32,000 nt of DNA from Erysipelotrichaceae bacterium (GCA_028698185.1 JAQVDW010000008.1:1-32000), one strand, 5' to 3'. Shown: positions 3,445-24,316, counted from the stretch's first letter. Notes: a model not told the origin generated them from the sequence alone. Numbers and translations: made by a program.

Positions 3445-3467
3445 TTGGCACTATTGTCGGACGCCAA
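3445..3467 (+). promoter_or_regulatory. Operator-like inverted repeat TTGGC-N13-GCCAA upstream of mtlA, a putative MtlR site
   Basis: It lies within the 28-nt element TTTTGGCACTATTGTCGGACGCCAAATC. A near-identical copy is at 9571-9598. Both end 17 nt before their -35 box. Confidence 0.6.
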
Positions 3468-3484: not shown

Positions 3485-3514
3485 TTGAAAATATGTTTTG
3501 GTAGCGCTTATAAT
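3485..3514 (+). promoter_or_regulatory. mtlA promoter
   Basis: TTGAAA (3485-3490), an 18-nt spacer, TATAAT (3509-3514). Confidence 0.6.
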
Positions 3515-3577
3515 AAGCTTGTAAAACACAGAAGCAATTGGCCATTACTTCAAACTACAATCTAAAGGAGAGCTATT

Positions 3578-4957
3578 ATGAAAGAAAAAGTCCAAACATT
3601 CGGACGGTTTTTAAGCGGCATGGTAATGCCAAATATCGGGGCATTCATTGCCTGGGGTTTGATCACTGCATTTTTTATTGAGACAGGATGGTTGCCAAAC
3701 GCGACATTCGCAGCATTGGTCGGACCAATGATCACTTATCTGTTGCCTTTATTGATCGGTTTCACCGGAGGGAAAATGGTTCATGACTTCCGCGGTGGGG
3801 TAATTGGAGCAATCGTAACCATGGGCGTTATCGTCGGTTCTGGAACAATCATGTTCATGGGGGCGATGATCTGCGGTCCTCTGGCTGCATGGATCTTGAA
3901 AAAATTCGATGAAAGAGTCGAAGGTAAAGTAAAACCCGGCTTTGAAATGCTTGTAAACAACTTCTCAATCGGAATCATCGGTCTGATCCTGACATTGCTT
4001 GCCATGTTGGCAATCGCGCCAGTGGTCGTAGCTGTAAACAACGCATTGGCGGCTGGAGTTGGCTTCTTCGTTGAACGCTCAATGTTGCCATTGGCGTCAC
4101 TGTTCATCGAACCGGCAAAAATCCTATTCTTGAACAACGCAATCAATCACGGAATCTTCTCGCCTCTGGGAATCGCCCAAGTCGAAGAAGTTGGAAAATC
4201 AATCTTCTTCCTGCTTGAGGCAAATCCGGGACCAGGTCTAGGAATCCTTATGGCCTATATGATTGCCGGAAAAGGGATGTCAAAAGCATCAGCGCCAGGA
4301 GCAATAATCATCCACTTCCTGGGTGGTATCCATGAAATCTATTTCCCATTCGTATTGATGAATCCATTGTTGATCTTCGCCGCTATCGGTGGGGGAGCTG
4401 CCGGTGTCTTCACTTTCCAAATGTTGAATGTCGGTCTGACTGCTCCAGCTTCACCGGGTTCAATCTTCGCATTATTGATGATGTGCTCTAAAGACAGCTA
4501 TGTCGGTCTGGTTTTGGGTGTGGCTGCAGCGGCCCTGGTGGCACTGGCGATTGCCCTGCCAATCCTGAAATTCTCAAACAAAGAAACTAGTCTCGAAGAA
4601 GCAAAACAAAAAAACAAGGAATTGAAAGGTGCAAATCCTGCGCAGGATACAAAAGCAATCACCGGAAAAATTTCGAAAATCGCTTTTGCCTGCGATGCCG
4701 GAATGGGATCAAGCGCGATGGGAGCTACAGTCTTGAAAAACAAGATTAAGGATGCGGGCCTAACTGGAATCGAAGTCATCCATACGTCGGTTTCGACAAT
4801 CCCCGGGGATGTCCAGGTCGTTGTCACCCATGAGTCACTGGCGCAACGGGCGGCCAATTCGAATCCGGATGCCAAGCTGGTATTGATCACAAACTTCCTG
4901 CAGGCTCCTGAGTATGATGAGCTAGTCGAATTCCTAAAAGAAAACCATAAAAATTAG
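3578..4957 (+). CDS. mtlA: PTS mannitol-specific EIICB component
   Basis: 459 aa. The N-terminus FGRFLSGMVMPNIGAFIAWG plus LFLNNAINHGIF, NPGPG and FLGGIHEIYFP are mannitol EIIC motifs. The C-terminal EIIB module has the phospho-Cys context IAFACDAGMGSSAMG. AAGGAG SD present. Confidence 0.9.
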   Translation: MKEKVQTFGRFLSGMVMPNIGAFIAWGLITAFFIETGWLPNATFAALVGPMITYLLPLLIGFTGGKMVHDFRGGVIGAIVTMGVIVGSGTIMFMGAMICGPLAAWILKKFDERVEGKVKPGFEMLVNNFSIGIIGLILTLLAMLAIAPVVVAVNNALAAGVGFFVERSMLPLASLFIEPAKILFLNNAINHGIFSPLGIAQVEEVGKSIFFLLEANPGPGLGILMAYMIAGKGMSKASAPGAIIIHFLGGIHEIYFPFVLMNPLLIFAAIGGGAAGVFTFQMLNVGLTAPASPGSIFALLMMCSKDSYVGLVLGVAAAALVALAIALPILKFSNKETSLEEAKQKNKELKGANPAQDTKAITGKISKIAFACDAGMGSSAMGATVLKNKIKDAGLTGIEVIHTSVSTIPGDVQVVVTHESLAQRAANSNPDAKLVLITNFLQAPEYDELVEFLKENHKN

Positions 4958-4980
4958 GTCACTTAAGTGACCTGTTTTTT
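4956..4980 (+). terminator. Intrinsic terminator of mtlA
   Basis: AGGTCAC-ttaa-GTGACCT followed by GTTTTTT. Confidence 0.85.
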
Positions 4981-4988
4981 GGTATAAT
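4980..4988 (+). promoter_or_regulatory. Extended -10 promoter element in front of the mtlA paralog-mtlR unit
   Basis: TGgTATAAT lies immediately after the mtlA terminator T-run. There is no -35 box. The start codons lie only 9 nt (GTG) or 18 nt (ATG) downstream. Confidence 0.5.
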
Positions 4989-5005
4989 GGTTACGGGTGA
5001 TATTA

Positions 5006-6334
5006 ATGAAAAAACAAATCAAGAAAATTATCAAGTTCTATGCCTCGATTATCATGTCCTGCATGGGCGTATTCATGTTTCTGGGCATTTTGAATATAGT
5101 GTCGAATTTCTACCAGGATGAACGCCTGGTCCAAAGCATCCATGTGATAATAAACATCATTCTACCGGTGACCATAGCTTACCTGGCGGCCACCAGGATA
5201 TCGGACCATACCGGTGGAATAATCGGACTTCTGGCTAGTGTAGCCTTGATTGTGACACCAAACAATGCGAGCATCATCGGCGCCTTTGTGATTGGGAGTT
5301 GCGCCGGGCTTGTCAACCGGCATTTTTTGAAGCGGCTCATAGAGCGGATTCCACCGGGATTCGAGCTTCTGTTTACCAACCTGATTATCGGCGTTTTCGG
5401 TTTTGGACTGGGGATGCTGGTGAATCTGGTGATGATTCCAACGCTGAATGTTTTTAGCGTTGTTACCAACGGATTTATCACATACCTGCTAAACAACGAG
5501 CTGATCGCTCTGATGGCGGTGGTAATCGAGGTTTCCAAAGTGTTTTTCTTGAACAACCTGATCAACCATGGAATCCTGATCCCCCTGGGTCTGTCCCAGG
5601 TCAATCAGATGGGAGACACGATCCTTTTTTTCCTGGAAACAAATCCCGGACCGGGTGCCGGGGTGATCCTGGCCCTGCTTTTTGCAAAAAAAAGGGAGGC
5701 CCGGCAGATGTTTAGTTATTTCACGGTCCAGTTTCTAGGCGGAATCCATGAGGTTTACTTCCCGCTTGTCCTGGAATTCAGGAAGCTATTCATCGCCCTG
5801 ATAATGGGTGGGATGGCCGGAATCATCACGATGGAGAACATGGATCTCGGACTGATAAGTCCGGTAAGTCCCGGCAGCGTCTTTACGATCATGCTCAATG
5901 CGAGCAATTCCGACCGCCTGCTGGTGCTGGCACCAATCGGGATTTCCCTGCTGGTTTCATTCTTTAGCGCGATTGTAATCCTCCAGATTTCCACTGCTTC
6001 CCATGGGGGCAAGAAAAGTTCCGTCCTAAAATTGGGACCGATCAAAAAGATCGTTTTCACATGCGACGGGGGCTTCGGATCGTCGGTGATGGGTGCATCC
6101 CTTTTCAATCGCAAAATCAAGAAATATGATTTCAACCTGACGGTCAAGGCTCAGGGAATAAATAATATCGATGAAGATGTCTCGCTGATTGTCGTCCAGA
6201 CGGGATTAGAGAAGATGGCTCGGGAAAAGTATCCTCACAAGGAAATATATCCGGTCAATGAATTCCTGGACAATGGCAGCTATGACGAACTTATTGCAAT
6301 GTTGGAAGAAAGGAACAGGAATAATGAACTTTGA
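5006..6334 (+). CDS. Divergent mannitol-family PTS EIICB paralog, either a second permease or a sensor
   Basis: 442 aa from ATG 5006 (an in-frame GTG lies at 4997). It retains FFLNNLINHGI, NPGPG, FLGGIHEVYFP, SPGS and an EIIB Cys context (IVFTCDGGFGSSVMG). The N-terminus and most loops differ from the upstream MtlA. It overlaps the mtlR start by 11 nt. Confidence 0.8.
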   Translation: MKKQIKKIIKFYASIIMSCMGVFMFLGILNIVSNFYQDERLVQSIHVIINIILPVTIAYLAATRISDHTGGIIGLLASVALIVTPNNASIIGAFVIGSCAGLVNRHFLKRLIERIPPGFELLFTNLIIGVFGFGLGMLVNLVMIPTLNVFSVVTNGFITYLLNNELIALMAVVIEVSKVFFLNNLINHGILIPLGLSQVNQMGDTILFFLETNPGPGAGVILALLFAKKREARQMFSYFTVQFLGGIHEVYFPLVLEFRKLFIALIMGGMAGIITMENMDLGLISPVSPGSVFTIMLNASNSDRLLVLAPIGISLLVSFFSAIVILQISTASHGGKKSSVLKLGPIKKIVFTCDGGFGSSVMGASLFNRKIKKYDFNLTVKAQGINNIDEDVSLIVVQTGLEKMAREKYPHKEIYPVNEFLDNGSYDELIAMLEERNRNNEL

Positions 6335-8378
6335 TCCACGAATGAAAAAAATACTTCTGGAATTGCTCAAGGATGAGTACCTTTCGATTTCCCAGCTGGC
6401 TGAGCGCGTCGGGGTATCCAAACGGACTATCCAGCGAGAGCTTGGCTACATTGACGATGATTTAAGACCGTACAATCTGGTGTTCCAAAGCAAGACCGGA
6501 AAGGGCGTCTGGCTTGAAGGGTCCCAGGAAAACAAGCTTGAACTTTACAGTGCCATTGAAAAGGACAACACCTTCGACAGTTTCGATGCCAAAAACCGCC
6601 AGCGCCGGATCCTGCTCGAATTGCTCAAATCACAGGACATCCACAAGATAATATCCTTTGCGAACCTGATCAATGTATCAGAAGCGACAATCAGGCTCGA
6701 TCTTATGGAAATCGAAAAGTGGCTTGACAAGTTCGACCTTGTCCTGGAAAAGACACCGGGCCTAGGAGTCAGGATGTCGGGCAGCGAGGCCAATTTGCGT
6801 CGGGCAATTCGTGCCTACTTCAGTGATTTTGCCCCGGAAAGCAGCGGCTCAGGTCGGTTTGATGAAATCAAGGAATTCATGGTCAAGAATCGTGAAGGCA
6901 TATCCCAGCTGCTCGATGAGGACATCCTCAAAAGGGTGATCGAATGTCTTGAGGACATTTCCAGCGACCAGATCAGGGAGCTTACCGAAAGTTCCTATAT
7001 CGGCCTGATTATCCATCTGGCCATAGTGGTCAAAAGGATCCAAAGCGGGGAGCAGATAAGCTATGACCGTGATCTGCTCAAAAGCATCGACATCGACCAG
7101 GATTACCGGATCGCCAAGCTGATTGGCGAATTTCTAATGGCGGAGTTCGATATTGTGATCGACGAGATGGAACTGTATTACATCAACCTCCATCTCAAGG
7201 GAACCAAACACCAGACCATGAATATCGAGAATATCCAAATGGACAACGAGGTCATCAAGCGCCTGATCAACAAGATGATCGATGCCTATGATCCGGCTAT
7301 CGCCTTTGAACTGAAGCAGGACGACCATTTCATCAACGGCCTGCTTACCCATTTGCAGCCTACTTTGATCAGGATTGTCAATGACATGGTCATAACAAAT
7401 CCTTTGCTTGACCAGATCAAGAAACAGTATCCTCGCGAGTTCGAAAAATGCCTGAATGTGGGTCAGGTCCTCGAGGATTTCACCCACAAGAAGGTGCCTT
7501 CGGGCGAAATCGGATTTCTCGCGATGCATTTTGGCAGTGCCGGCATCCGGCTCAAACTCGCTACCAAAAAAGCACGCCGGGTCAATGTCGGAGTCATCTG
7601 TGCGACGGGAATCGGGCTGTCACGTCTGATGGGGGCAAGTCTTGAAAAGATATATGGCGACAGGATCAGGGTTTTCCCCTTTTCCAAGGCCGATGCTTTT
7701 AGCGCTGATGTGATTGATTTCTACCTTTCATCGATAAAGATGGATGGCTACCATGAAAATCTTCTTTACGTCAACCCGATATTGAATGATCAGGACCTTG
7801 ATGCCATTGGCGCGCTTATTGAAAAGCATTGTTACCTTCCTGTAAAGAATACCACCGTTCAGGACAGTTTCATCGAACAGCTTAGCGAATTCGACTACTA
7901 TGTGGGCACAATCAAATATATTCTCGAAAACATCCGGATCACCCGGATTCGAGCGGACTGTGATTTTGGTGGCCTTGTCGCCCGTTCAACTGATTCCATG
8001 GATGAAACAATGGCTGCTACGGTGCGCCATGACCTTATTGCCCGGGAAAAAATAGGCAGCCAGATTTTCAAACAGCTATCGTTTGGCCTGCTACATACCA
8101 AGACTAACGGGGTTGAAAGACCTCAAATCATCCTGATTTTGCCTGAATCCGGGCCGGCTTTTGTGGATGACTATCTTGCAGGAGTCAAGGTTGTCATTTG
8201 TTTGCTTATGCCAAAAAATGAATACGAGAATCTTAATTCGAACATCCTGGGCCATATTTCATCGGTGCTCGTCGAAGACGAATCGATAATCGACGTATTT
8301 GCCACCGGTCAAAAACAGGAAATAGTCGAGAAGCTCTCGCTCCATTTCAAGACTTTCCTGGCTAAAAACCTGCTATGA
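6324..8378 (+). CDS. mtlR: MtlR-type PRD-containing transcriptional activator (HTH, Mga-like region, PRD1, PRD2, EIIB-Gat-like and EIIA-Mtl-like domains)
   Basis: 684 aa from ATG 6324, with AAGGAACAGGA upstream. The longer ORF from 6258 has no SD. Features are an N-terminal HTH (LSISQLAERVGVSKRTIQREL), PRD histidines (YINLHLKG, FLAMHFGSAG), an EIIB-like Cys (VGVICATGIGLS) and a C-terminal EIIA-like His (GLLHTKT). Its length and context match MtlR of Bacillus and Geobacillus. Confidence 0.85.
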   Translation: MNFDPRMKKILLELLKDEYLSISQLAERVGVSKRTIQRELGYIDDDLRPYNLVFQSKTGKGVWLEGSQENKLELYSAIEKDNTFDSFDAKNRQRRILLELLKSQDIHKIISFANLINVSEATIRLDLMEIEKWLDKFDLVLEKTPGLGVRMSGSEANLRRAIRAYFSDFAPESSGSGRFDEIKEFMVKNREGISQLLDEDILKRVIECLEDISSDQIRELTESSYIGLIIHLAIVVKRIQSGEQISYDRDLLKSIDIDQDYRIAKLIGEFLMAEFDIVIDEMELYYINLHLKGTKHQTMNIENIQMDNEVIKRLINKMIDAYDPAIAFELKQDDHFINGLLTHLQPTLIRIVNDMVITNPLLDQIKKQYPREFEKCLNVGQVLEDFTHKKVPSGEIGFLAMHFGSAGIRLKLATKKARRVNVGVICATGIGLSRLMGASLEKIYGDRIRVFPFSKADAFSADVIDFYLSSIKMDGYHENLLYVNPILNDQDLDAIGALIEKHCYLPVKNTTVQDSFIEQLSEFDYYVGTIKYILENIRITRIRADCDFGGLVARSTDSMDETMAATVRHDLIAREKIGSQIFKQLSFGLLHTKTNGVERPQIILILPESGPAFVDDYLAGVKVVICLLMPKNEYENLNSNILGHISSVLVEDESIIDVFATGQKQEIVEKLSLHFKTFLAKNLL

Positions 8379-8461: not shown

Positions 8462-9055
8462 ATGAGCGAATATCTGCATTTGATTGAAAAGCGCCGCTCC
8501 AATTACGACCTTGGTCGCAATGTCACAGCCACCAAGGAAGAGATAAATGAGCTGATCGCCACTGTCGTCCATCACAACCCATCATCATACAACAGCCAGT
8601 CCACTAAGGTAATCGTGCTTTATGATTTGGAACATGACGATTTCTGGGACCTGGTCTCGAACCAACTTGAGAAGATCGTCGCTCCGGAAAGATTTCCAGC
8701 CACCAAAAAAAAGATTGAAGGATTCAAAAAGGCCTTTGGGACCGTCCTGTTTTTCGAAGATGAAAGCATAACCGGAGACCTGGTGAAAAAGTACCCCAGC
8801 TATGCCCAAAACTTCCGAATCTGGGCGCAGCAGGCCAATGCGATGGTCCAGTATGGAATCTGGGTCGGGTTGGGGGTGATGTCTCTTGGCGGTTCGCTCC
8901 AGCATTACAATGAAGTAATCGAAACGGCGGTGTGGCAGGCGTACGATCTTGATCGAAGCTGGAGGCTGATCGCCCAGATGCCTTTTGGATCGATCGAGAG
9001 CGCACCAAATGAAAAGGCGAAGAAAATCGAAGGGCGCATGATAATTAAAGAATAG
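8462..9055 (+). CDS. Nitroreductase-family flavoprotein
   Basis: 197 aa with an AAGGAGA SD. The N-terminal IEKRRSNYDL and the later NSQSTKVIVL block are typical of the small NAD(P)H nitroreductase-like family. A terminator follows. Confidence 0.7.
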   Translation: MSEYLHLIEKRRSNYDLGRNVTATKEEINELIATVVHHNPSSYNSQSTKVIVLYDLEHDDFWDLVSNQLEKIVAPERFPATKKKIEGFKKAFGTVLFFEDESITGDLVKKYPSYAQNFRIWAQQANAMVQYGIWVGLGVMSLGGSLQHYNEVIETAVWQAYDLDRSWRLIAQMPFGSIESAPNEKAKKIEGRMIIKE

Positions 9056-9080
9056 AGTCGCCTTGATCTATCACAATGGA

Positions 9081-9116
9081 GTCAACTTAAGAATTTTTTC
9101 TTGAGTTGGCTTTTTT
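9081..9116 (+). terminator. Intrinsic terminator after the nitroreductase gene
   Basis: GTCAACTTAAG-aatttttt-CTTGAGTTGGC (two G-U pairs) followed by TTTTTT. Confidence 0.8.
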
Positions 9117-9521
9117 GTTTGTGCAGTTTGCGGGTGATCTGACAAATGATTTTTAGAAACTCAAACATCATCGAGCCTCCAGGAATTGGCTATCACTCGT
9201 CACTGAATGTTTGGTCAACTCCGACATTTGAAGATTATAAAAAATGTGTCTCATCCGTTGCTTGCACTCAGACAGTTCTCATTGCAACAATCTTTCTTTG
9301 CAGGTTCACAGTTAGGACTACCATGCAAATTATCCTGGCAAGGCTTGAATGGTTTTGCAACGCGGATGGCCCTACCTGCAGTATACCATTACCATTATAA
9401 GACTTGATTTTGACGGCAATAAGTTAATTTATCTTGATACAATCGCCATAAATCGAAGATATCGCTATCCAAAACGAAAACATGTTTAAGCCAGGGAAGT
9501 TATTTAAGTTGATTCCTTTTG

Positions 9522-9573: not shown

Positions 9574-9596
9574 TTGGCACTAATTGATGGGGCCAA
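9574..9596 (+). promoter_or_regulatory. Second copy of the TTGGC-N13-GCCAA operator, upstream of mtlF
   Basis: The element is TTTTGGCACTAATTGATGGGGCCAAATC. The 11-nt left flank and the 8-nt right flank are identical to the mtlA copy. Confidence 0.6.
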
Positions 9597-9613: not shown

Positions 9614-9642
9614 TTGAATTACAAGCGATTACATAGGATAAT
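9614..9642 (+). promoter_or_regulatory. mtlF operon promoter
   Basis: TTGAAT (9614-9619), a 17-nt spacer, GATAAT (9637-9642). Confidence 0.55.
9620..9633 (+). promoter_or_regulatory. cre-like (CcpA) site inside the mtlF promoter spacer
   Basis: TACAAGCGATTACA compared with the consensus TGWAANCGNTNWCA. The right half and the central CG are perfect, and the left half has two mismatches. Confidence 0.35.
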
Positions 9643-9670: not shown

Positions 9671-10132
9671 ATGTTTTTTAAGAAAAATAAACAGGCGGTA
9701 GAGAAACCGCCCTTACTGAAAAAAGAAAATATCATAATCAACGCCAAGGCGGCCGACAAAGACGATGCCATCAACCAGGTCGGAAAGATTTTGTTTGATA
9801 GCGGCTATGTGCTGCAAGAATATATCCAGGGTATGCACGAAAGAGAAAAGACCTTCGCGACATACATGGGCAACTATCTGGCGCTGCCCCATGGGGTGGA
9901 ACAGGTCAAGGATGCCATCGTCAATTCCGGAATCGCAATCATGATCTTCCCGGATGGTGTCGACTGGGACGGCAACGATGCCAAAATAGTGATCGGCATC
10001 GCCGGCAAAGGCGGCGAACACATGACCATCCTGGCGAATATAGCAACCAAGCTGATCGACATCAACGTTTGCGAACAGCTGATTGCCAGTGACCAGGACA
10101 CCATTTACGACATACTGACAAGCGAGGCCTAA
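9671..10132 (+). CDS. mtlF: PTS mannitol-specific EIIA component
   Basis: 153 aa with an AAAGGAG SD. The phospho-His context is YLALPHGVEQ. The overall pattern (KENI..N, GYV...Y, ER E, GIAGKGGEH) closely follows my recollection of B. subtilis MtlF. Confidence 0.85.
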   Translation: MFFKKNKQAVEKPPLLKKENIIINAKAADKDDAINQVGKILFDSGYVLQEYIQGMHEREKTFATYMGNYLALPHGVEQVKDAIVNSGIAIMIFPDGVDWDGNDAKIVIGIAGKGGEHMTILANIATKLIDINVCEQLIASDQDTIYDILTSEA

Positions 10133-10133
10133 G

Positions 10134-11060
10134 ATGATAATCACAATTACTATGAATCCCGCAGTGGATAAGACAATAACACTCGACCAGCTAGAACTGG
10201 GCGGATTGAGCCGGGTCAAATCAATCAAGCAGGACGCCGGTGGCAAAGGAATCAATGTTTCCAAGACAATCAAGGCATTGCACGGGGAATCCCTGGCATT
10301 GGGATTTGTCGGAGGCGAAAGCGGAACATTCATTGTCAAGGCATTGAATGAACTGGACATCAGACATGATTTTGTATACCTGGACCAGAATACCCGGGTT
10401 AACACGAAGGTGGTTGAAAACAGTGGCCGGGTCAGTGAAATAAATGAACCTGGACCGATCATCAACCGGGAAATGGTCGACTTGCTTTTGGAAAAGGTCA
10501 GAAAATATGCGGCAGAAGACGTTGTCTTTGTCCTTGCGGGATCGATTCCCCTTGGAGTGGACAAAGGAATCTACGGAAAGATCGTCGACATCGCCCATCT
10601 AAACGGGGCCAAGGTCATCCTGGATGCGGACGGCGACCTGTTCCGGGAATCGCTGCCTTCAAATCCCGACTATATCAAACCAAACCGCGAGGAATTGGAA
10701 AAATACGCCGGGCTGGACCACGAGGCATCAAAAGAGGAGCTGATCGCCATCGGTCAGGGACTCAAGGACAAGGGTATTGACAATGTCCTGATTTCACTGG
10801 GCAAAGAAGGGGCTTTGTTTTTGATGGAACGCAATGCGTTCGTGCCAGGACTCAAGGTAGTTGCCCAATCGACAGTCGGCGCCGGTGACGCGCTGGTCGG
10901 GGCGCTGGCTTACAGTGTCGAACACAAACTTGAACTAGAAGACCTGATCGAGCTGGCAATCGCCACTTCGGCTGGAGCAGTCACGACCCATGGAACCCAG
11001 CCACCAACGAATGAACTGGTCAACGAGCTCAAAAAACAAGTGAAAATTGAAATGTTATAG
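10134..11060 (+). CDS. 1-phosphofructokinase-family hexose-phosphate kinase (PfkB/FruK/LacC family)
   Basis: 308 aa. The N-terminus MIITITMNPAVDKT...DAGGKGINVS and the C-terminal anion-hole motif VGAGDALVGALAY are typical of FruK/LacC kinases. The start is 1 nt after the mtlF stop, with a GAGG SD inside the mtlF 3-prime end. Confidence 0.85.
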   Translation: MIITITMNPAVDKTITLDQLELGGLSRVKSIKQDAGGKGINVSKTIKALHGESLALGFVGGESGTFIVKALNELDIRHDFVYLDQNTRVNTKVVENSGRVSEINEPGPIINREMVDLLLEKVRKYAAEDVVFVLAGSIPLGVDKGIYGKIVDIAHLNGAKVILDADGDLFRESLPSNPDYIKPNREELEKYAGLDHEASKEELIAIGQGLKDKGIDNVLISLGKEGALFLMERNAFVPGLKVVAQSTVGAGDALVGALAYSVEHKLELEDLIELAIATSAGAVTTHGTQPPTNELVNELKKQVKIEML

Positions 11061-11096
11061 ATAGATAAAAAAAGATAGAAAATCGAGGAGAACAAG

Positions 11097-12362
11097 ATGA
11101 AAACTAGAGCAGTTAGAATGTACGGAGAAAATGATTTACGCTTGGAAGAATTTGAATTGCCACAGATCAAGGATGATGAAATCCTGGTTAAGGTTATGTC
11201 TGACAGTATCTGCATGTCAACCTACAAATTGGCTATCCAAGGTAAAAAACACAAGAGAGCACCCAAAAATATCGATACCAACCCGATCATCATCGGTCAT
11301 GAATTCGCGGGAGTTATCGTTGAAGTCGGAAAGAAATGGCAGGACCAGTTCAAACCGGGAATGAAATTCGCGCAACAGCCGGCATTGAACTACAAAGGTT
11401 CTCTGGCATCACCGGGTTATTCATATGAATTCTTCGGGGGAGCCTGCACTTATTGCATCATCCCACAAGAAGTAATGGAACTGGGATGTCTGATGGAATA
11501 TAAAGGAGAAAGTTTCTTCGAAGCTTCACTGGGGGAACCGATGTCATGTATCATCGGCGGTTACCATGCCAACTACCATACAAACAAACAGAACTACGAG
11601 CATGCGATGGGAACCAAAAAAGACGGGAACATCATCATTCTTGGAGGTTGTGGACCGATGGGTCTGGGTGCGATCTCTTACGGGCTGCAAATCGAAAACA
11701 GACCGCAACGGATTGTCGTTACGGATATCGACGATGCGAAAATCCAAAGAGCTCGCGAAGTTATCAGCGAACAGCAAGCCAAGGAGGCCGGAGTCGAACT
11801 GATCTATGTCAATACAGCCAAAATGGCCGACCAAGTAAAGGAACTCAAAGATCTTACCGACGGTCATGGTTATGATGATGTCTTTGTCTACATCCCGAAC
11901 CAGAAAGTGGCGGAACTAGGTGACCAGCTTATGGCCTTCGATGGTTGCTTGAACTTCTTCGCCGGACCGACTGACAGCAATTTCTCAGCCAAAATCAACC
12001 TTTACAATGTCCACTACACCGCAAGCAAGATCATCGGGTCGACCGGTGGGAACAACGATGATTTGATCGAAGCCAATGAACTGGCATCGAAAAAATTGAT
12101 CGAACCGGCCGTAATGGTAACCCATGTCGGTGGTATTGATTCAATTGCCCAAGCGACTCTCGACTTGCCAAATATTCCAGGTGGGAAAAAGCTGACTTAC
12201 ACCCAATTCGAAATGCCTCTGACTGCAATCGAAGATTTCAAGGAATTAGGAAAAACCGATCCTCTTTTCAAGAAGCTCGATGAAGCCTGCCAGGCAAACC
12301 GCGGACTATGGAGCAGCGAAGCGGAAAAAATCCTGTTCGATCATTATAACGTAACTTATTAA
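11097..12362 (+). CDS. Zn-dependent medium-chain dehydrogenase of the roughly 420-aa SorE/YggP (L-sorbose-1-phosphate reductase-like) type
   Basis: 421 aa with a GAGGAG SD. Motifs include DSICMSTYK, IIGHEFAGVIVEVGKKW, a Rossmann loop ILGGCGPMGLGA, FFAGPTD and PGGKKLTY. The length and motif order match my recollection of SorE and E. coli YggP, and not MtlD. Confidence 0.75.
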   Translation: MKTRAVRMYGENDLRLEEFELPQIKDDEILVKVMSDSICMSTYKLAIQGKKHKRAPKNIDTNPIIIGHEFAGVIVEVGKKWQDQFKPGMKFAQQPALNYKGSLASPGYSYEFFGGACTYCIIPQEVMELGCLMEYKGESFFEASLGEPMSCIIGGYHANYHTNKQNYEHAMGTKKDGNIIILGGCGPMGLGAISYGLQIENRPQRIVVTDIDDAKIQRAREVISEQQAKEAGVELIYVNTAKMADQVKELKDLTDGHGYDDVFVYIPNQKVAELGDQLMAFDGCLNFFAGPTDSNFSAKINLYNVHYTASKIIGSTGGNNDDLIEANELASKKLIEPAVMVTHVGGIDSIAQATLDLPNIPGGKKLTYTQFEMPLTAIEDFKELGKTDPLFKKLDEACQANRGLWSSEAEKILFDHYNVTY

Positions 12363-14374: not shown

Positions 14375-15171
14375 TAATCGACAAGGAGCATCCGGTCGTT
14401 TGCGAATGATTCGTGGGACACTTCTTCGAATTTGCGCAGGAGGTCCTCGACCGTAAGGTTCATTTTTTCTTCCCCGGAAACGTCATAGACAATCTGCCCC
14501 TGGTTCATCATGATCAGCCGGTTGCCGATGGCGATGGCGTCTTTCATGTTGTGGGTGACCATCAACGCGGTCAGGTTCTGTTCGGCTACGATTTCTTCAG
14601 TCAGTTCAAGCACTTTTTTGGCGGTGACTGGATCAAGTGCGGCCGTATGCTCGTCGAGCAGGAGAATCTTTGGTTTTTGCAGGGTCGCCATAAGCAACGT
14701 CAAGGCCTGGCGCTGCCCGCCTGAAAGCAACCCGACTTTAGAAGTCATCCGGTTTTCCAGGCCTAGCCCGAGCCGTTTCAATACTTCATGGTATTGTTGT
14801 TTCTCGCTGGCCTTGATTCCCCATGCAAGGGTTCTTCTTTTGCCGCGGCGGTTGGCCAGGGCGAGATTCTCGATGATTTCCAGATTGGTTGCGGTACCCA
14901 TCATCGGATCCTGGAATACCCGCCCGATGTTTGCGGCAATTTCATGTTCGCCTTTGAGCGAAACATCATTGTTGTCGAGATAGATATGGCCGCAATCGAT
15001 GCTGTAGACCCCGGCGATTGTGTTGAGCAAAGTCGATTTCCCCGCTCCGTTGCCGCCGATGATCGTGATGAAATCTCCGTCATTGACTGTCAAGGAGATG
15101 TTTTGAAGGGCCTTTTTCTCGTTGATTGTTCCCAAGTTGAACGTTTTGGAAATGTTACTTAGTTTCAGCAT
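14374..15171 (-). CDS. ABC transporter ATP-binding protein (COG1101-type partner of the COG2984/COG4120 system)
   Basis: Walker A GGNGAGKST, signature LSGGQRQ and Walker B ILLLDEHT. The ATG at 15171 lies 7 nt after AAGGAG. The ORF track starts it at TTG 15177. Confidence 0.85.
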   Translation of the reverse strand: MLKLSNISKTFNLGTINEKKALQNISLTVNDGDFITIIGGNGAGKSTLLNTIAGVYSIDCGHIYLDNNDVSLKGEHEIAANIGRVFQDPMMGTATNLEIIENLALANRRGKRRTLAWGIKASEKQQYHEVLKRLGLGLENRMTSKVGLLSGGQRQALTLLMATLQKPKILLLDEHTAALDPVTAKKVLELTEEIVAEQNLTALMVTHNMKDAIAIGNRLIMMNQGQIVYDVSGEEKMNLTVEDLLRKFEEVSHESFANDRMLLVD

Positions 15172-16081
15172 CTTCAAGCTCCTTTGTCATTTTTTTGTAT
15201 GTGGTGACCTGTCTTCGTTTGGCCAGATAGGTCGGAATGGCCAAAGCCACGGCAACCAGAATGGCGGTGAAAAGTTTCAGGTCATCGGTCGAAAGTCCGG
15301 CCTGGAGCACCAGGGTGATGATGATCCGATAGATGATTGAACCGGAAATGATCGCGGCTAGGGTGACCATAAAATTGGTTCCCTTAGAGATTAGGACTTC
15401 ACCGATTACAATCGAAGCCAGGGCCATGACAATCGCCCCGATCCCCATTTTGATGTCGGCATAACCCTGGGCCTGGGTGACAAGTCCGCCCGAAAGGGCG
15501 ATCAGGCCGTTGGAAATCATCAGTCCGATGATCTTTGTCGAGTTGGTGTTCACGCCAAGCGAACGGACCATCTTCTCATTGTTTCCGGTGGCCCGAATCG
15601 CGCTTCCCAGTTCGGTTCCAAAAAACCAGTAACTGATCATGATGATGACCACTGCAATCACAAGCCCGATTATCAAAACGATCCAGTTGTTTGACAGCCC
15701 GCCAATCGGGAAGTCCTTGAACAGGTTAGGGGTGTTGAGCAATGGGATGTTCGATCTCCCCATTATTCGAAGGTTGATCGAGTACAGCCCGATCTGTGAC
15801 AATATCCCGGCCAGGATGGCGGGAATATCGAATTTGGTGTGTAAGATTCCGGTTATTCCTCCGGCAATGAAACCGGAAACCGTGGCCATCAAAATGGCGA
15901 CGAAAGGATTGATTCCTGATGTCAACGCTACTGCGCAGACCGCTCCGCCTGTGGCAAAAGAGCCGTCTACCGTCAAATCAGCAATGTCCAAAAGTCTAAA
16001 AGTAATAAAAACGCCTAAGGCCATGATACCCCAAAGGATACCTTGACCTACAGCGCTTTGAATAGCAAGTAAAAAAGGCAT
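15155..16081 (-). CDS. ABC transporter permease (COG4120-type)
   Basis: 308-aa polytopic membrane ORF. Its start overlaps the stop of the upstream binding-protein gene (TAATG), and its 3-prime end overlaps the ATPase start. Confidence 0.85.
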   Translation of the reverse strand: MPFLLAIQSAVGQGILWGIMALGVFITFRLLDIADLTVDGSFATGGAVCAVALTSGINPFVAILMATVSGFIAGGITGILHTKFDIPAILAGILSQIGLYSINLRIMGRSNIPLLNTPNLFKDFPIGGLSNNWIVLIIGLVIAVVIIMISYWFFGTELGSAIRATGNNEKMVRSLGVNTNSTKIIGLMISNGLIALSGGLVTQAQGYADIKMGIGAIVMALASIVIGEVLISKGTNFMVTLAAIISGSIIYRIIITLVLQAGLSTDDLKLFTAILVAVALAIPTYLAKRRQVTTYKKMTKELEDAETK

Positions 16082-23616: not shown

Positions 23617-23761
23617 ATGACAGTAAATGAAAAGTAGTGGAAAGAAGAAGTGCCTGCTTCTCGCCTGAGTGAACTTATCGCTAGGCCAATGTCACAAAGA
23701 ATTTATTCTTAATGAGATTATAGCGGGTGCAATCTGTACTCGCTTTTTATTTTAAACTACT
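23617..23761 (+). promoter_or_regulatory. Structured 5-prime leader of the infC operon, an L20-leader-type attenuator
   Basis: A leader of about 140 nt lies between the promoter and the infC SD. It ends in an intrinsic terminator (23722-23750). This is the architecture described for L20-mediated autoregulation in Bacillus. Confidence 0.55.
23722..23750 (+). terminator. Attenuator terminator inside the infC leader
   Basis: AGCGGGTGCA-atc-TGTACTCGCT followed by TTTTTATTTT, 12 nt before the infC SD. Confidence 0.7.
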
Positions 23762-24316
23762 ATGGAGGTGACTTTTATTAGAAAATATGATACCAAAAAA
23801 CCAAAACAACCTGATGAGTTAGTAAATGAGAAGATTCGGTTCAGAGAAGTCTTGGTTATTGATCAAAATGGTGATCAGCTTGGAGTTAAATCGAAAAATG
23901 AGGCTATCGATCTTGCGTATAGCCGTGATTTAGATTTGGTTTGTGTTGCCCCAAATGCCAAACCGCCAGTTTGCCGGATTATGGACTTTGGAAAATATCG
24001 TTTTGAGCAACAAAAAAAGGCTCGAGAAATGAAGAAAAACTCGAAAACTGTTACCCTTAAAGAAACGCAGTTGTCAGTGACTATCGATACTCATGACAAA
24101 AACGTGAAGTTGAAAAGAACATTGGCTTGGCTTGAGGAAGGTAACAAAGTTAAAATTGCAATCAGGTTCAGAGGTCGACAAATGGCTCATATGGACTTAG
24201 GAAAGAAAGTCATTGATGATTTTGTGGCTGAATGTGCGGAATTCGGTACGGTTGAATCACCAGCCAAACTAGAAGGAAGAACGTTGACTGCAATCATTGC
24301 ACCAAAGAAAAAATAA
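23762..24316 (+). CDS. infC: Translation initiation factor IF-3
   Basis: The pattern INEKIRFREVLVIDQNGDQLG...VCRIMDFGKYRFEQQKK...FRGRQMAH is typical IF-3. The ATG at 23762 sits inside the GGAGGTGA SD, so the real start is probably the in-frame ATT at 23777. Confidence 0.9.
   Translation: MEVTFIRKYDTKKPKQPDELVNEKIRFREVLVIDQNGDQLGVKSKNEAIDLAYSRDLDLVCVAPNAKPPVCRIMDFGKYRFEQQKKAREMKKNSKTVTLKETQLSVTIDTHDKNVKLKRTLAWLEEGNKVKIAIRFRGRQMAHMDLGKKVIDDFVAECAEFGTVESPAKLEGRTLTAIIAPKKK

Follow-up and report, generated by a model that had tools for sequence, protein, structure and literature searches.

A diverged mannitol-type EIICB paralog linked to mtlR, a candidate sensor for the regulator in an Erysipelotrichaceae bacterium

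In Firmicutes, MtlR-type activators serve as a model of transcriptional control by membrane tethering and by phosphorylation through the phosphotransferase system (PTS). In the model organisms one permease transports and signals, and the two roles are inseparable, whereas in the locus described here they appear to be split over two genes. The locus lies in a 32-kb stretch of DNA (32,000 nt, hereafter the window, to which all coordinates refer) from an Erysipelotrichaceae bacterium. Its central element is a diverged paralog of the mannitol permease EIICB(Mtl), which we name EIICB' and whose gene stands between the canonical permease gene mtlA and the regulator gene mtlR, overlapping the latter.

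In Bacillus subtilis, MtlR is active only when the unphosphorylated EIIB domain of MtlA tethers it (Bouraoui 2013, as cited in PMC8560693), and it is inactivated through MtlF and MtlA (Joyet 2010; Bouraoui 2013; as summarised in PMC8560693). According to the summary in PMC3924034, the PTS-Mpo of Listeria monocytogenes controls ManR (Ake 2011). In Enterococcus faecalis, the operon mtlA-mtlR-mtlF is constitutive, not induced by mannitol, and growth on this sugar alcohol does not require its PTS (Anbalagan, Sadlon & Weaver, bioRxiv 10.1101/2022.02.04.479212). The inducible operon is fully repressed only in the presence of this PTS, the deletion of which raises mtlA2-mtlF2-mtlD expression 2-3 fold in glucose, and the authors regard the rationale for a second transporter as unclear (bioRxiv 10.1101/2022.02.04.479212). 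We found no description of the EIICB' family, or of the cassette with a dehydrogenase and a 1-phosphofructokinase to which it belongs, in the literature.

The features of the window that concern EIICB' directly are the following:

3445..3467, plus strand: MtlR-operator-like site 1, TTGGCACTATTGTCGGACGCCAA, an exact motif match 17 bp 5' of the mtlA -35 box
3485..3514, plus strand: promoter-like site of mtlA, TTGAAA-18-TATAAT, with 11 of 12 consensus positions matched
3578..4957, plus strand: mtlA, canonical mannitol EIICB of 459 aa (NF011663, 659.6 bits, cut-off 589; TIGR00851, 512.6, cut-off 468.4)
4955..4980, plus strand: intrinsic terminator of mtlA from the terminator scan, 8-bp stem, 4-nt loop and T6, -10.2 kcal/mol
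4980..4988, plus strand: extended -10 promoter-like element TGGTATAAT of the paralog-mtlR unit, invariant in four syntenic loci
4995..5001, plus strand: Shine-Dalgarno-like GGGTGAT of the paralog, with GGTGAT invariant in the four loci
5006..6334, plus strand: gene of EIICB', diverged EIICB(Mtl) paralog of 442 aa, identified by homology to MtlA, core motifs and a structure model
6324..8378, plus strand: mtlR, PRD-type activator of 684 aa (HTH_11, Mga, two PRD and EIIA_2 domains)

The EIICB' protein and its place beside mtlR

EIICB' aligns with the MtlA of the window over its full length at 32% identity (451 aligned columns, E = 1e-77). The identity is unevenly distributed: it is highest in the core (48%), lower in EIIB (34%) and falls to 12-29% in the N-terminal helices and in the stretches on either side of the core. 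The protein scores below the cut-offs of NF011663 (264.3 bits, cut-off 589), TIGR00851 (212.8, cut-off 468.4) and PF02378 (26.5, cut-off 30.7), and passes only PF02302 (26.4 versus 23.6). Its relatives are labelled 'hypothetical protein' in NCBI records, and an identical protein is listed as 'MAG: hypothetical protein [Erysipelotrichaceae bacterium]'. A preliminary description of the window, made from the sequence alone, had stated that the paralog retains the core EIIC motifs and the EIIB cysteine while being strongly diverged elsewhere. In agreement with this, FFLNNLINHGI, NPGPG, FLGGIHEVYFP and the EIIB loop CDGGFGSSVMGA are all found. Across all 62 paralog sequences E178/K181, FLNNxINHG, ExNPGPGxG, GGIHExYFP and PGS are strictly kept, as is the EIIB loop C-D-x-G-x-G-S-S-x-M-G with its cysteine. 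C353 of EIICB' aligns with the E. coli EIIB(Mtl) cysteine that is replaced in the phospho-mimic entry 1vrv (C384SEP).

The AlphaFold2 model of EIICB' comprises a complete EIIC and EIIB (predicted local distance difference test 87.4, predicted template-modelling score 0.70). Its best match in the PDB library is 9a2w, an integrative model of E. coli MtlA (E = 7e-16), and its EIIB domain superposes on 1vkr with a template-modelling score of 0.90 and a root mean square deviation of 1.5 Å; a sequence search of the PDB found no experimental EIIC(Mtl) structure. The ratio of nonsynonymous to synonymous substitution rates (dN/dS) of the EIICB' gene is 0.09-0.15, compared with 0.06-0.07 for mtlA and 0.06-0.10 for mtlR. 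This corresponds to purifying selection and hence to a functional gene, the product of which very likely still binds and phosphorylates a substrate.

These data bear on two alternative explanations of the gene. The first is a decaying, functionless duplicate that is retained for the promoter and the ribosome-loading context of mtlR. Its repeated loss, its truncation in some lineages and its scores under nearly all curated cut-offs (PF02302 being passed) would agree with decay, but a dN/dS of ~0.10, an intact frame and invariant motifs across clades that are ~36% identical do not. Truncated forms, moreover, keep an intact EIIB with its cysteine at a dN/dS of 0.26. We consider such a duplicate extremely improbable, and the pseudogene reading was rejected on the basis of dN/dS and motif conservation. 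The second explanation is a plain second permease, for mannitol with another affinity or for a related polyol, which would share MtlF and the kinase/dehydrogenase route, would have no specific action on MtlR and would owe its place beside mtlR to a past tandem duplication. A second permease, for another polyol and with the single EIIA in common, had also been the alternative named in the preliminary description. The strict conservation of the EIIC core motifs and of the EIIB cysteine and the complete, confidently predicted EIICB-type fold are in line with it. The segment before GGIHE and several motif-adjacent positions differ systematically from canonical MtlA (G233K, G241S, A188L, I254V), which could alter the specificity. 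The authors of the E. faecalis study, too, could not exclude another substrate for their paralog (bioRxiv 10.1101/2022.02.04.479212). The genomic context described below makes a plain second permease unlikely, though it keeps some weight.

A scan of genome contigs with the single paralog protein returned no relatives, and the family was reached via the protein database and the well-conserved dehydrogenase encoded at the end of the cassette. The dehydrogenase is 80-95% identical across cassettes and has at least 8000 protein-database matches at E<=1e-30. With it, a scan of GTDB species genomes gave at least 536 relatives, of which the best 80 loci were annotated (L010-L089; L001-L003 are syntenic metagenomic relatives of the window). 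Among these best 80 of at least 536, the order mtlA-EIICB'-mtlR-mtlF-pfkB-adh occurs at 18 loci (16 without duplicate contigs, 17 distinct ones with the window), mtlA-mtlR-mtlF-pfkB-adh at 25 and mtlA-mtlR-mtlF-adh at 11. The 17 EIICB' loci belong to at least two bacterial families, with Erysipelotrichaceae and Lachnospiraceae-type genomes. At least 36 cassettes of the same type lack EIICB', which is therefore accessory. Three syntenic metagenomic genomes share the gene order of the window including a nitroreductase gene, and their paralogs are 82, 70 and 55% identical to that of the window. More distant relatives (34-37% identity), in Lachnospiraceae-type genomes, occupy the same position, with a canonical mtlA on one side and mtlR on the other, and genes for mtlF, pfkB and the same dehydrogenase come next.

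The adjacency of the paralog and mtlR, which the preliminary description had suggested checking in related genomes, holds in the 17 distinct loci. The spacing is mostly -37 to +14 nt, and in no annotated locus was EIICB' seen away from mtlR, which always follows directly 3'; for a plain second permease such an invariable partner is not expected. In the window, the open frame of EIICB' begins at GTG 4997 with an ATG start at 5006. Its stop codon ends at 6334 and the ATG of mtlR is at 6324, an 11-nt overlap that had been described correctly and that recurs in the gene calls of L001 and L003.

In two lineages, a soluble EIIB' gene is all that is left in the paralog position beside mtlR; the cysteine and a promoter-like signal are retained and the membrane part is gone. 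L034 (3347-3775) encodes a 142-aa product from which EIIC has been deleted in frame. Stand-alone EIIB' proteins of 98-101 aa are encoded in L021 (~131-427), L090 (134-430), L091 (139-435) and L092 (141-446). Their genes have a terminator, a TTGACG-17-TGTTAAAAT promoter and a good ribosome-binding site, and are separated from mtlR by 38-40 nt. The proteins fall into three clusters with identities down to 69% and a dN/dS of 0.26. In the MtlR tree, L021 is sister to two cassettes that are fully without paralog, and a path from full EIICB' via EIIB' alone to loss is suggested. A search for extra small EIIB genes in the mtlA-mtlR gaps of cassettes without paralog found none. Since EIIB'-only genes persist beside mtlR, the phosphorylatable EIIB domain appears to be the longest-lasting part of the protein. 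Such derivatives cannot transport, yet they are under selection beside mtlR, a further point against a plain second permease. They also argue, lacking any membrane part, against the idea of the preliminary description that the paralog serves as a membrane anchor of the regulator; a mere anchor is likewise disfavoured by the strict conservation of the substrate-site and phosphoryl-transfer motifs. As a separate observation, three independent assemblies (L021, L090, L091) all end ~130 nt 5' of the EIIB' gene, and this shared break suggests a repeat or strain variation.

Transcription signals and evolutionary pace of the paralog-mtlR unit

The spacer between mtlA and the paralog contains the hairpin TAGGTCAC-TTAA-GTGACCTG at 4955-4974, followed by T6 at 4975-4980. 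The preliminary description had called this a strong terminator. A terminator is indeed present, but at -10.2 kcal/mol it is an ordinary one, and the weakest of the four that were folded in the window (the others reach -12.5 to -19.4 kcal/mol). The extended -10 that had been placed directly after it, before the second EIICB, is borne out as TGGTATAAT at 4980-4988 and is conserved. It is absent from the list of a simple -35/-10 scan because its -35 is poor. T6-GGTATAAT and GGTGAT are invariant in the four syntenic loci, the paralogs of which are just 55-82% identical, and the -10 and the ATG are 17 nt apart in all four. The terminator hairpin is maintained in L001, L002 and L003 despite base changes.

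To compare more distant loci, an extended -10 was defined as TGnTAnnnT with at least four of six matches to TATAAT. By this definition, 16 of the 17 distinct loci carry one in the spacer between mtlA and the paralog, versus 2.4 on average and never more than 8 when the spacers were shuffled 500 times. Where the paralog is missing, the spacer between mtlA and mtlR is usually short, and six of 39 gaps carry one versus 4.1 expected. The difference between the two groups is significant for these phylogenetically non-independent loci (Fisher p = 2.6e-8). Some of the loci outside the window clade, though not all, share with that clade a clear intrinsic terminator 3' of mtlA. Two loci, L042 (~1560-1650) and L032 (~4560-4640), have a terminator-like hairpin between the candidate extended -10 and the start codon of the paralog; it could be an attenuator, or the promoter could be mis-assigned.

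The exact motif TTGGCA-N12-GCCAA occurs at two sites only in the 32 kb of the window, 3445-3467 and 9574-9596, both of them 17 bp 5' of a -35 box (TTGAAA or TTGAAT). In related loci, operator-like sites are likewise found 5' of mtlA and of mtlF. No such site precedes the paralog, neither in the window nor in the mtlA-paralog spacers of related loci, as the preliminary description had claimed for the window. In the window, as in every double-permease cassette, there is a single free EIIA gene, mtlF, and it stands behind the second operator. These signals suggest a change of circuit: without paralog, mtlR would ride on the MtlR-activated mtlA transcript, while with it, paralog and mtlR would form an operator-less unit of their own. 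The mtlA leader has an additional element, TTGGCCA at 3538-3544 between promoter and start codon, which resembles two operator half-sites without a spacer. The palindrome TTGGCCA(A) is present 5' of mtlA in 25 of 64 loci and 5' of mtlF in none of 69. L004 and L007 have the perfect palindrome TGATTGGCCAATCA, and the TTGGCCA(A) element does not fit the consensus of the catabolite-responsive element (cre).

MtlR has the full B. subtilis-type set of domains, HTH, Mga, PRD1, PRD2, one that is EIIB(Gat)-like and one that is EIIA(Mtl)-like. Residues H231, H290, H343, H402, C426 and H591 are conserved in 56 MtlR proteins of the cassettes. By motif and position, rather than by direct alignment to the B. 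subtilis protein, they were equated with the phosphorylatable H230, H289, H342, H399, C419 and H599 of B. subtilis MtlR (PMC8560693). These sites are the same in MtlR whether or not a cassette has the paralog, and there is hence no signature of an altered control logic in them.

The EIICB' gene evolves at the pace of mtlR. Between the window and Lachnospiraceae-type loci, the identities are 36-37% for EIICB', 38-41% for MtlR, 67-70% for MtlA and 80-81% for the dehydrogenase, i.e., EIICB' has diverged about twice as far as MtlA. Its codon usage is also similar to that of mtlR and unlike that of mtlA or adh, with an effective number of codons of 49.5 and a GC content at third codon positions of 0.61, compared with 51.3 and 0.59 for mtlR and 45 and 0.51 for mtlA/adh. 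A plain second permease should be induced by its substrate and show MtlA-like codons and rate; EIICB' has no operator and is MtlR-like in both instead.

In a neighbour-joining tree, the paralogs of the window clade and of Lachnospiraceae-type genomes form one clade, with canonical MtlA and the Vagococcus-type paralogs on the other side (bootstrap 98/100); this tree has 37 taxa, E. faecalis itself not among them, and gap-filtered columns, and long-branch attraction is possible. The two groups of the paralog clade share the derived residues Y12, I15, F25, L29, L129, K233, S241 and V254 at sites that are invariant in canonical MtlA, and the Vagococcus paralogs keep the canonical residues there. 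The identical genomic position likewise speaks for a single origin of the clade. A first neighbour-joining tree of 128 sequences, rooted at the midpoint, split the window clade from the Lachnospiraceae paralogs; its basal branches were very short and it was not relied on. Within the Lachnospiraceae clade of the MtlR tree, single-permease cassettes nest among double-permease ones, and EIICB' thus appears to have been lost repeatedly. EIICB' belongs to a subfamily of mannitol-type EIICB proteins that is old, evolves fast and has as yet no name, and that has become tied to the regulator and not to the catabolic genes.

The same data bear on the idea that EIICB' is an obligatory heteromeric partner of MtlA, with a mixed EIIC dimer as the working transporter. 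Mannitol EIIC functions as a dimer, and the genes of MtlA and EIICB' are always adjacent. However, MtlA is alone in the 36 or more cassettes of the same type mentioned above, the regulatory signals of the two genes differ and their evolutionary rates are very different. The N-terminal helices are the most diverged part (12-29%), which would make mixed dimers less likely if it is these helices that scaffold the dimer, as they do in other EIIC structures. As EIIB'-only variants also exist, we regard a mixed dimer as very improbable.

A proposed role for EIICB'

From this anatomy we infer constitutive expression, a series of phosphotransfer steps and an effect on MtlR, and we propose for EIICB' the role of a transport-coupled sensor and phospho-partner that is dedicated to MtlR but produced, in small amounts, without its help, a role that we consider on balance probable. 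EIICB' and MtlR would be made together at a low level, independently of MtlR, from the operator-less extended -10 promoter, and their translation would be coupled via the 11-nt overlap, in a fixed proportion. As long as no substrate is present, the EIIB' cysteine would receive phosphate from phosphoenolpyruvate via EI, HPr and basal MtlF and would pass it to MtlR (C426, H591), which would be held inactive. In the presence of mannitol or a close analogue, EIICB' would hand its phosphate to the substrate and thereby drain MtlF, EIIB' and MtlR. MtlR would then be phosphorylated by HPr alone, on PRD2, and the unphosphorylated EIIB' domain may also bind it, as in B. subtilis. Active MtlR would switch on both operator-bearing promoters, those of mtlA and of mtlF-pfkB-dehydrogenase, and the high-capacity MtlA would take over the flux, EIICB' having set the state of MtlR before MtlA is induced.

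Of the two roles that the preliminary description had offered for the paralog, sensor-regulator module or membrane anchor, it is the module that this proposal develops. It is favoured by the conserved gene pair, the operator-less -10, the MtlR-like rate and codons, the accessory occurrence, the EIIB'-only forms and the precedent in E. faecalis; the anchor is disfavoured by the evidence given above.

Several observations weigh against a dedicated sensor. The transport motifs are fully retained, as would equally be expected of a genuine permease. The paralog-mtlR unit has no EIIA of its own, so that sensing would depend on basal expression of mtlF. The 5' leader implied by the paralog promoter is just ~10-11 nt long, and together with the ordinary terminator this means that read-through from the mtlA promoter may contribute; several Lachnospiraceae loci show no clear terminator between mtlA and the paralog. 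The enrichment statistics of the extended -10 are optimistic because the loci are not phylogenetically independent. All carriers of EIICB' that were found are metagenome-assembled genomes, and the paralogous PTS of E. faecalis has a small effect on regulation, 2-3 fold. For a plain second permease, on the other hand, a second catabolic enzyme would be expected alongside the paralog, and there is none. The two explanations are partly compatible, since a PTS sensor signals by transporting.

A more far-reaching variant of the sensor proposal, which we regard as possible but doubtful, would see EIICB' and the EIIB'-only forms as one family of dedicated MtlR co-regulators, that is, stoichiometric, translationally coupled phospho-partners in which EIIC is now a receptor with little or no nutrient flux. 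If this were true, a circular dependency would be solved, in which MtlR needs an EIIB(Mtl) and its permease needs MtlR for expression. The solution would have arisen in enterococci and here, at least two times in all, and in some Lachnospiraceae it would be undergoing decay to a soluble EIIB'. In either case, the apparent split of roles over two genes and the natural EIIB-only variants make the signalling step between EIIB and MtlR directly testable.

The catabolic cassette and comparison with described systems

The remaining features of the locus lie downstream of mtlR:

8462..9055, plus strand: nitroreductase-family gene (PF00881 match)
9078..9119, plus strand: terminator 3' of the nitroreductase gene from the terminator scan, 16-bp stem and T-run, -19.4 kcal/mol
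9574..9596, plus strand: MtlR-operator-like site 2, TTGGCACTAATTGATGGGGCCAA, the second exact match, 17 bp 5' of the mtlF -35 box
9614..9642, plus strand: promoter-like site of mtlF, TTGAAT-17-GATAAT, from the promoter scan
9671..10132, plus strand: mtlF, the only free-standing EIIA(Mtl/Fru) (PF00359, 114 bits)
10134..11060, plus strand: pfkB-family kinase, predicted 1-phosphofructokinase (TIGR03828, 310.8 bits, cut-off 292)
11097..12362, plus strand: Zn-dependent polyol-phosphate dehydrogenase, SorE-like, 421 aa (ADH_N and ADH_zinc_N domains)

In the window (9671-12362) and in loci L010-L089, mtlF is followed by the 1-phosphofructokinase and the dehydrogenase, and no MtlD is encoded; the SorE-like enzyme occupies the usual place of MtlD. 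The sources label it 'zinc-binding dehydrogenase' and once 'L-sorbose 1-phosphate reductase'. The gene content suggests a putative route from mannitol-1-phosphate via fructose-1-phosphate to fructose-1,6-bisphosphate, for which a literature search found no report. The nitroreductase gene between mtlR and mtlF is restricted to the Erysipelotrichaceae clade. The gap between mtlR and this gene holds no convincing terminator (-3.9 kcal/mol), and it may therefore be co-transcribed with the paralog and mtlR, possibly as the last gene.

The region between the nitroreductase terminator and the mtlF operator (9114-9520, ~400 bp) is without counterpart in the closest relatives, L001 having ~157 bp; conservation is confined to the final ~150 bp of the spacer that separates the nitroreductase gene from mtlF. 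It contains no convincing open reading frame and no Rfam match. In L003, a group II intron-type reverse transcriptase (14445-15842, RVT_1 and GIIM) is inserted between the nitroreductase gene and mtlF, in the spacer that in the window is enlarged. The Rfam search gave no match in the mtl locus; elsewhere in the window it found an ordinary L20 leader (RF00558, 62.4 bits) at 23636-23757, 5' of infC (23762-24316). Upstream, a gene for a PAS/GGDEF protein and a DUF2721 gene (11-2038) precede udp and the mtl locus, a neighbourhood that is kept in L001-L003.

A common family of gut bacteria, now annotated as 'hypothetical protein', thereby acquires a name and a context, and the analysis also draws attention to a widespread mannitol-type cassette in which a 1-phosphofructokinase and a SorE-like dehydrogenase replace MtlD.

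Among described systems, a diverged EIICB(Mtl) paralog beside a canonical MtlA is known from E. coli, where CmtA/CmtB is cryptic and its role unclear; it comes with an EIIA of its own (CmtB), has no link to a regulator gene and belongs to Proteobacteria. With B. subtilis the locus shares the domain set of MtlR, the six phosphorylatable residues and an operator just 5' of the -35 box. The proposed steps, inactivation by phosphorylated EIIA and EIIB and activation by unphosphorylated EIIB, are borrowed from this organism. In B. subtilis, however, a single transport permease does both jobs, whereas the window has a separate, diverged EIICB' that is linked to the regulator. The PTS-Mpo of Listeria, as far as the summary describes it, offers a functional parallel, being a paralogous PTS whose expression does not depend on the regulator and which acts as a sensor, its EIIB exerting control over the PRD-type protein that activates the main transport operon. 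In the same account it differs from the window in that it is of the mannose family, acts on a LevR-type sigma-54 activator and is encoded in an operon that is not adjacent to the regulator gene.

The closest of the described cases is that of E. faecalis. There, as in the window, a paralogous mannitol-type EIICB lies directly 5' of mtlR, and the two genes stand apart from the transport operon that MtlR activates. The differences are that the window unit has no EIIA of its own, that the gene order is inverted, the inducible permease coming first in the window, that the catabolic genes encode a 1-phosphofructokinase and a Zn-dehydrogenase and not MtlD, and that EIIB'-only derivatives exist. The window-type paralog is also apparently of independent origin, as judged via the Vagococcus paralog (98/100 and the derived residues). 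Vagococcus fluvialis (L009, 8001-15671) has an enterococcal-type layout, with a diverged EIICB (556 aa), mtlR (uncalled as a gene), an EIIA, a canonical EIICB, a second EIIA and MtlD, and its paralog belongs to a lineage separate from that of the window. A PTS paralog linked to a regulator is hence not unprecedented; what EIICB' adds is a conserved family, apparently of independent origin, with natural EIIB'-only forms.

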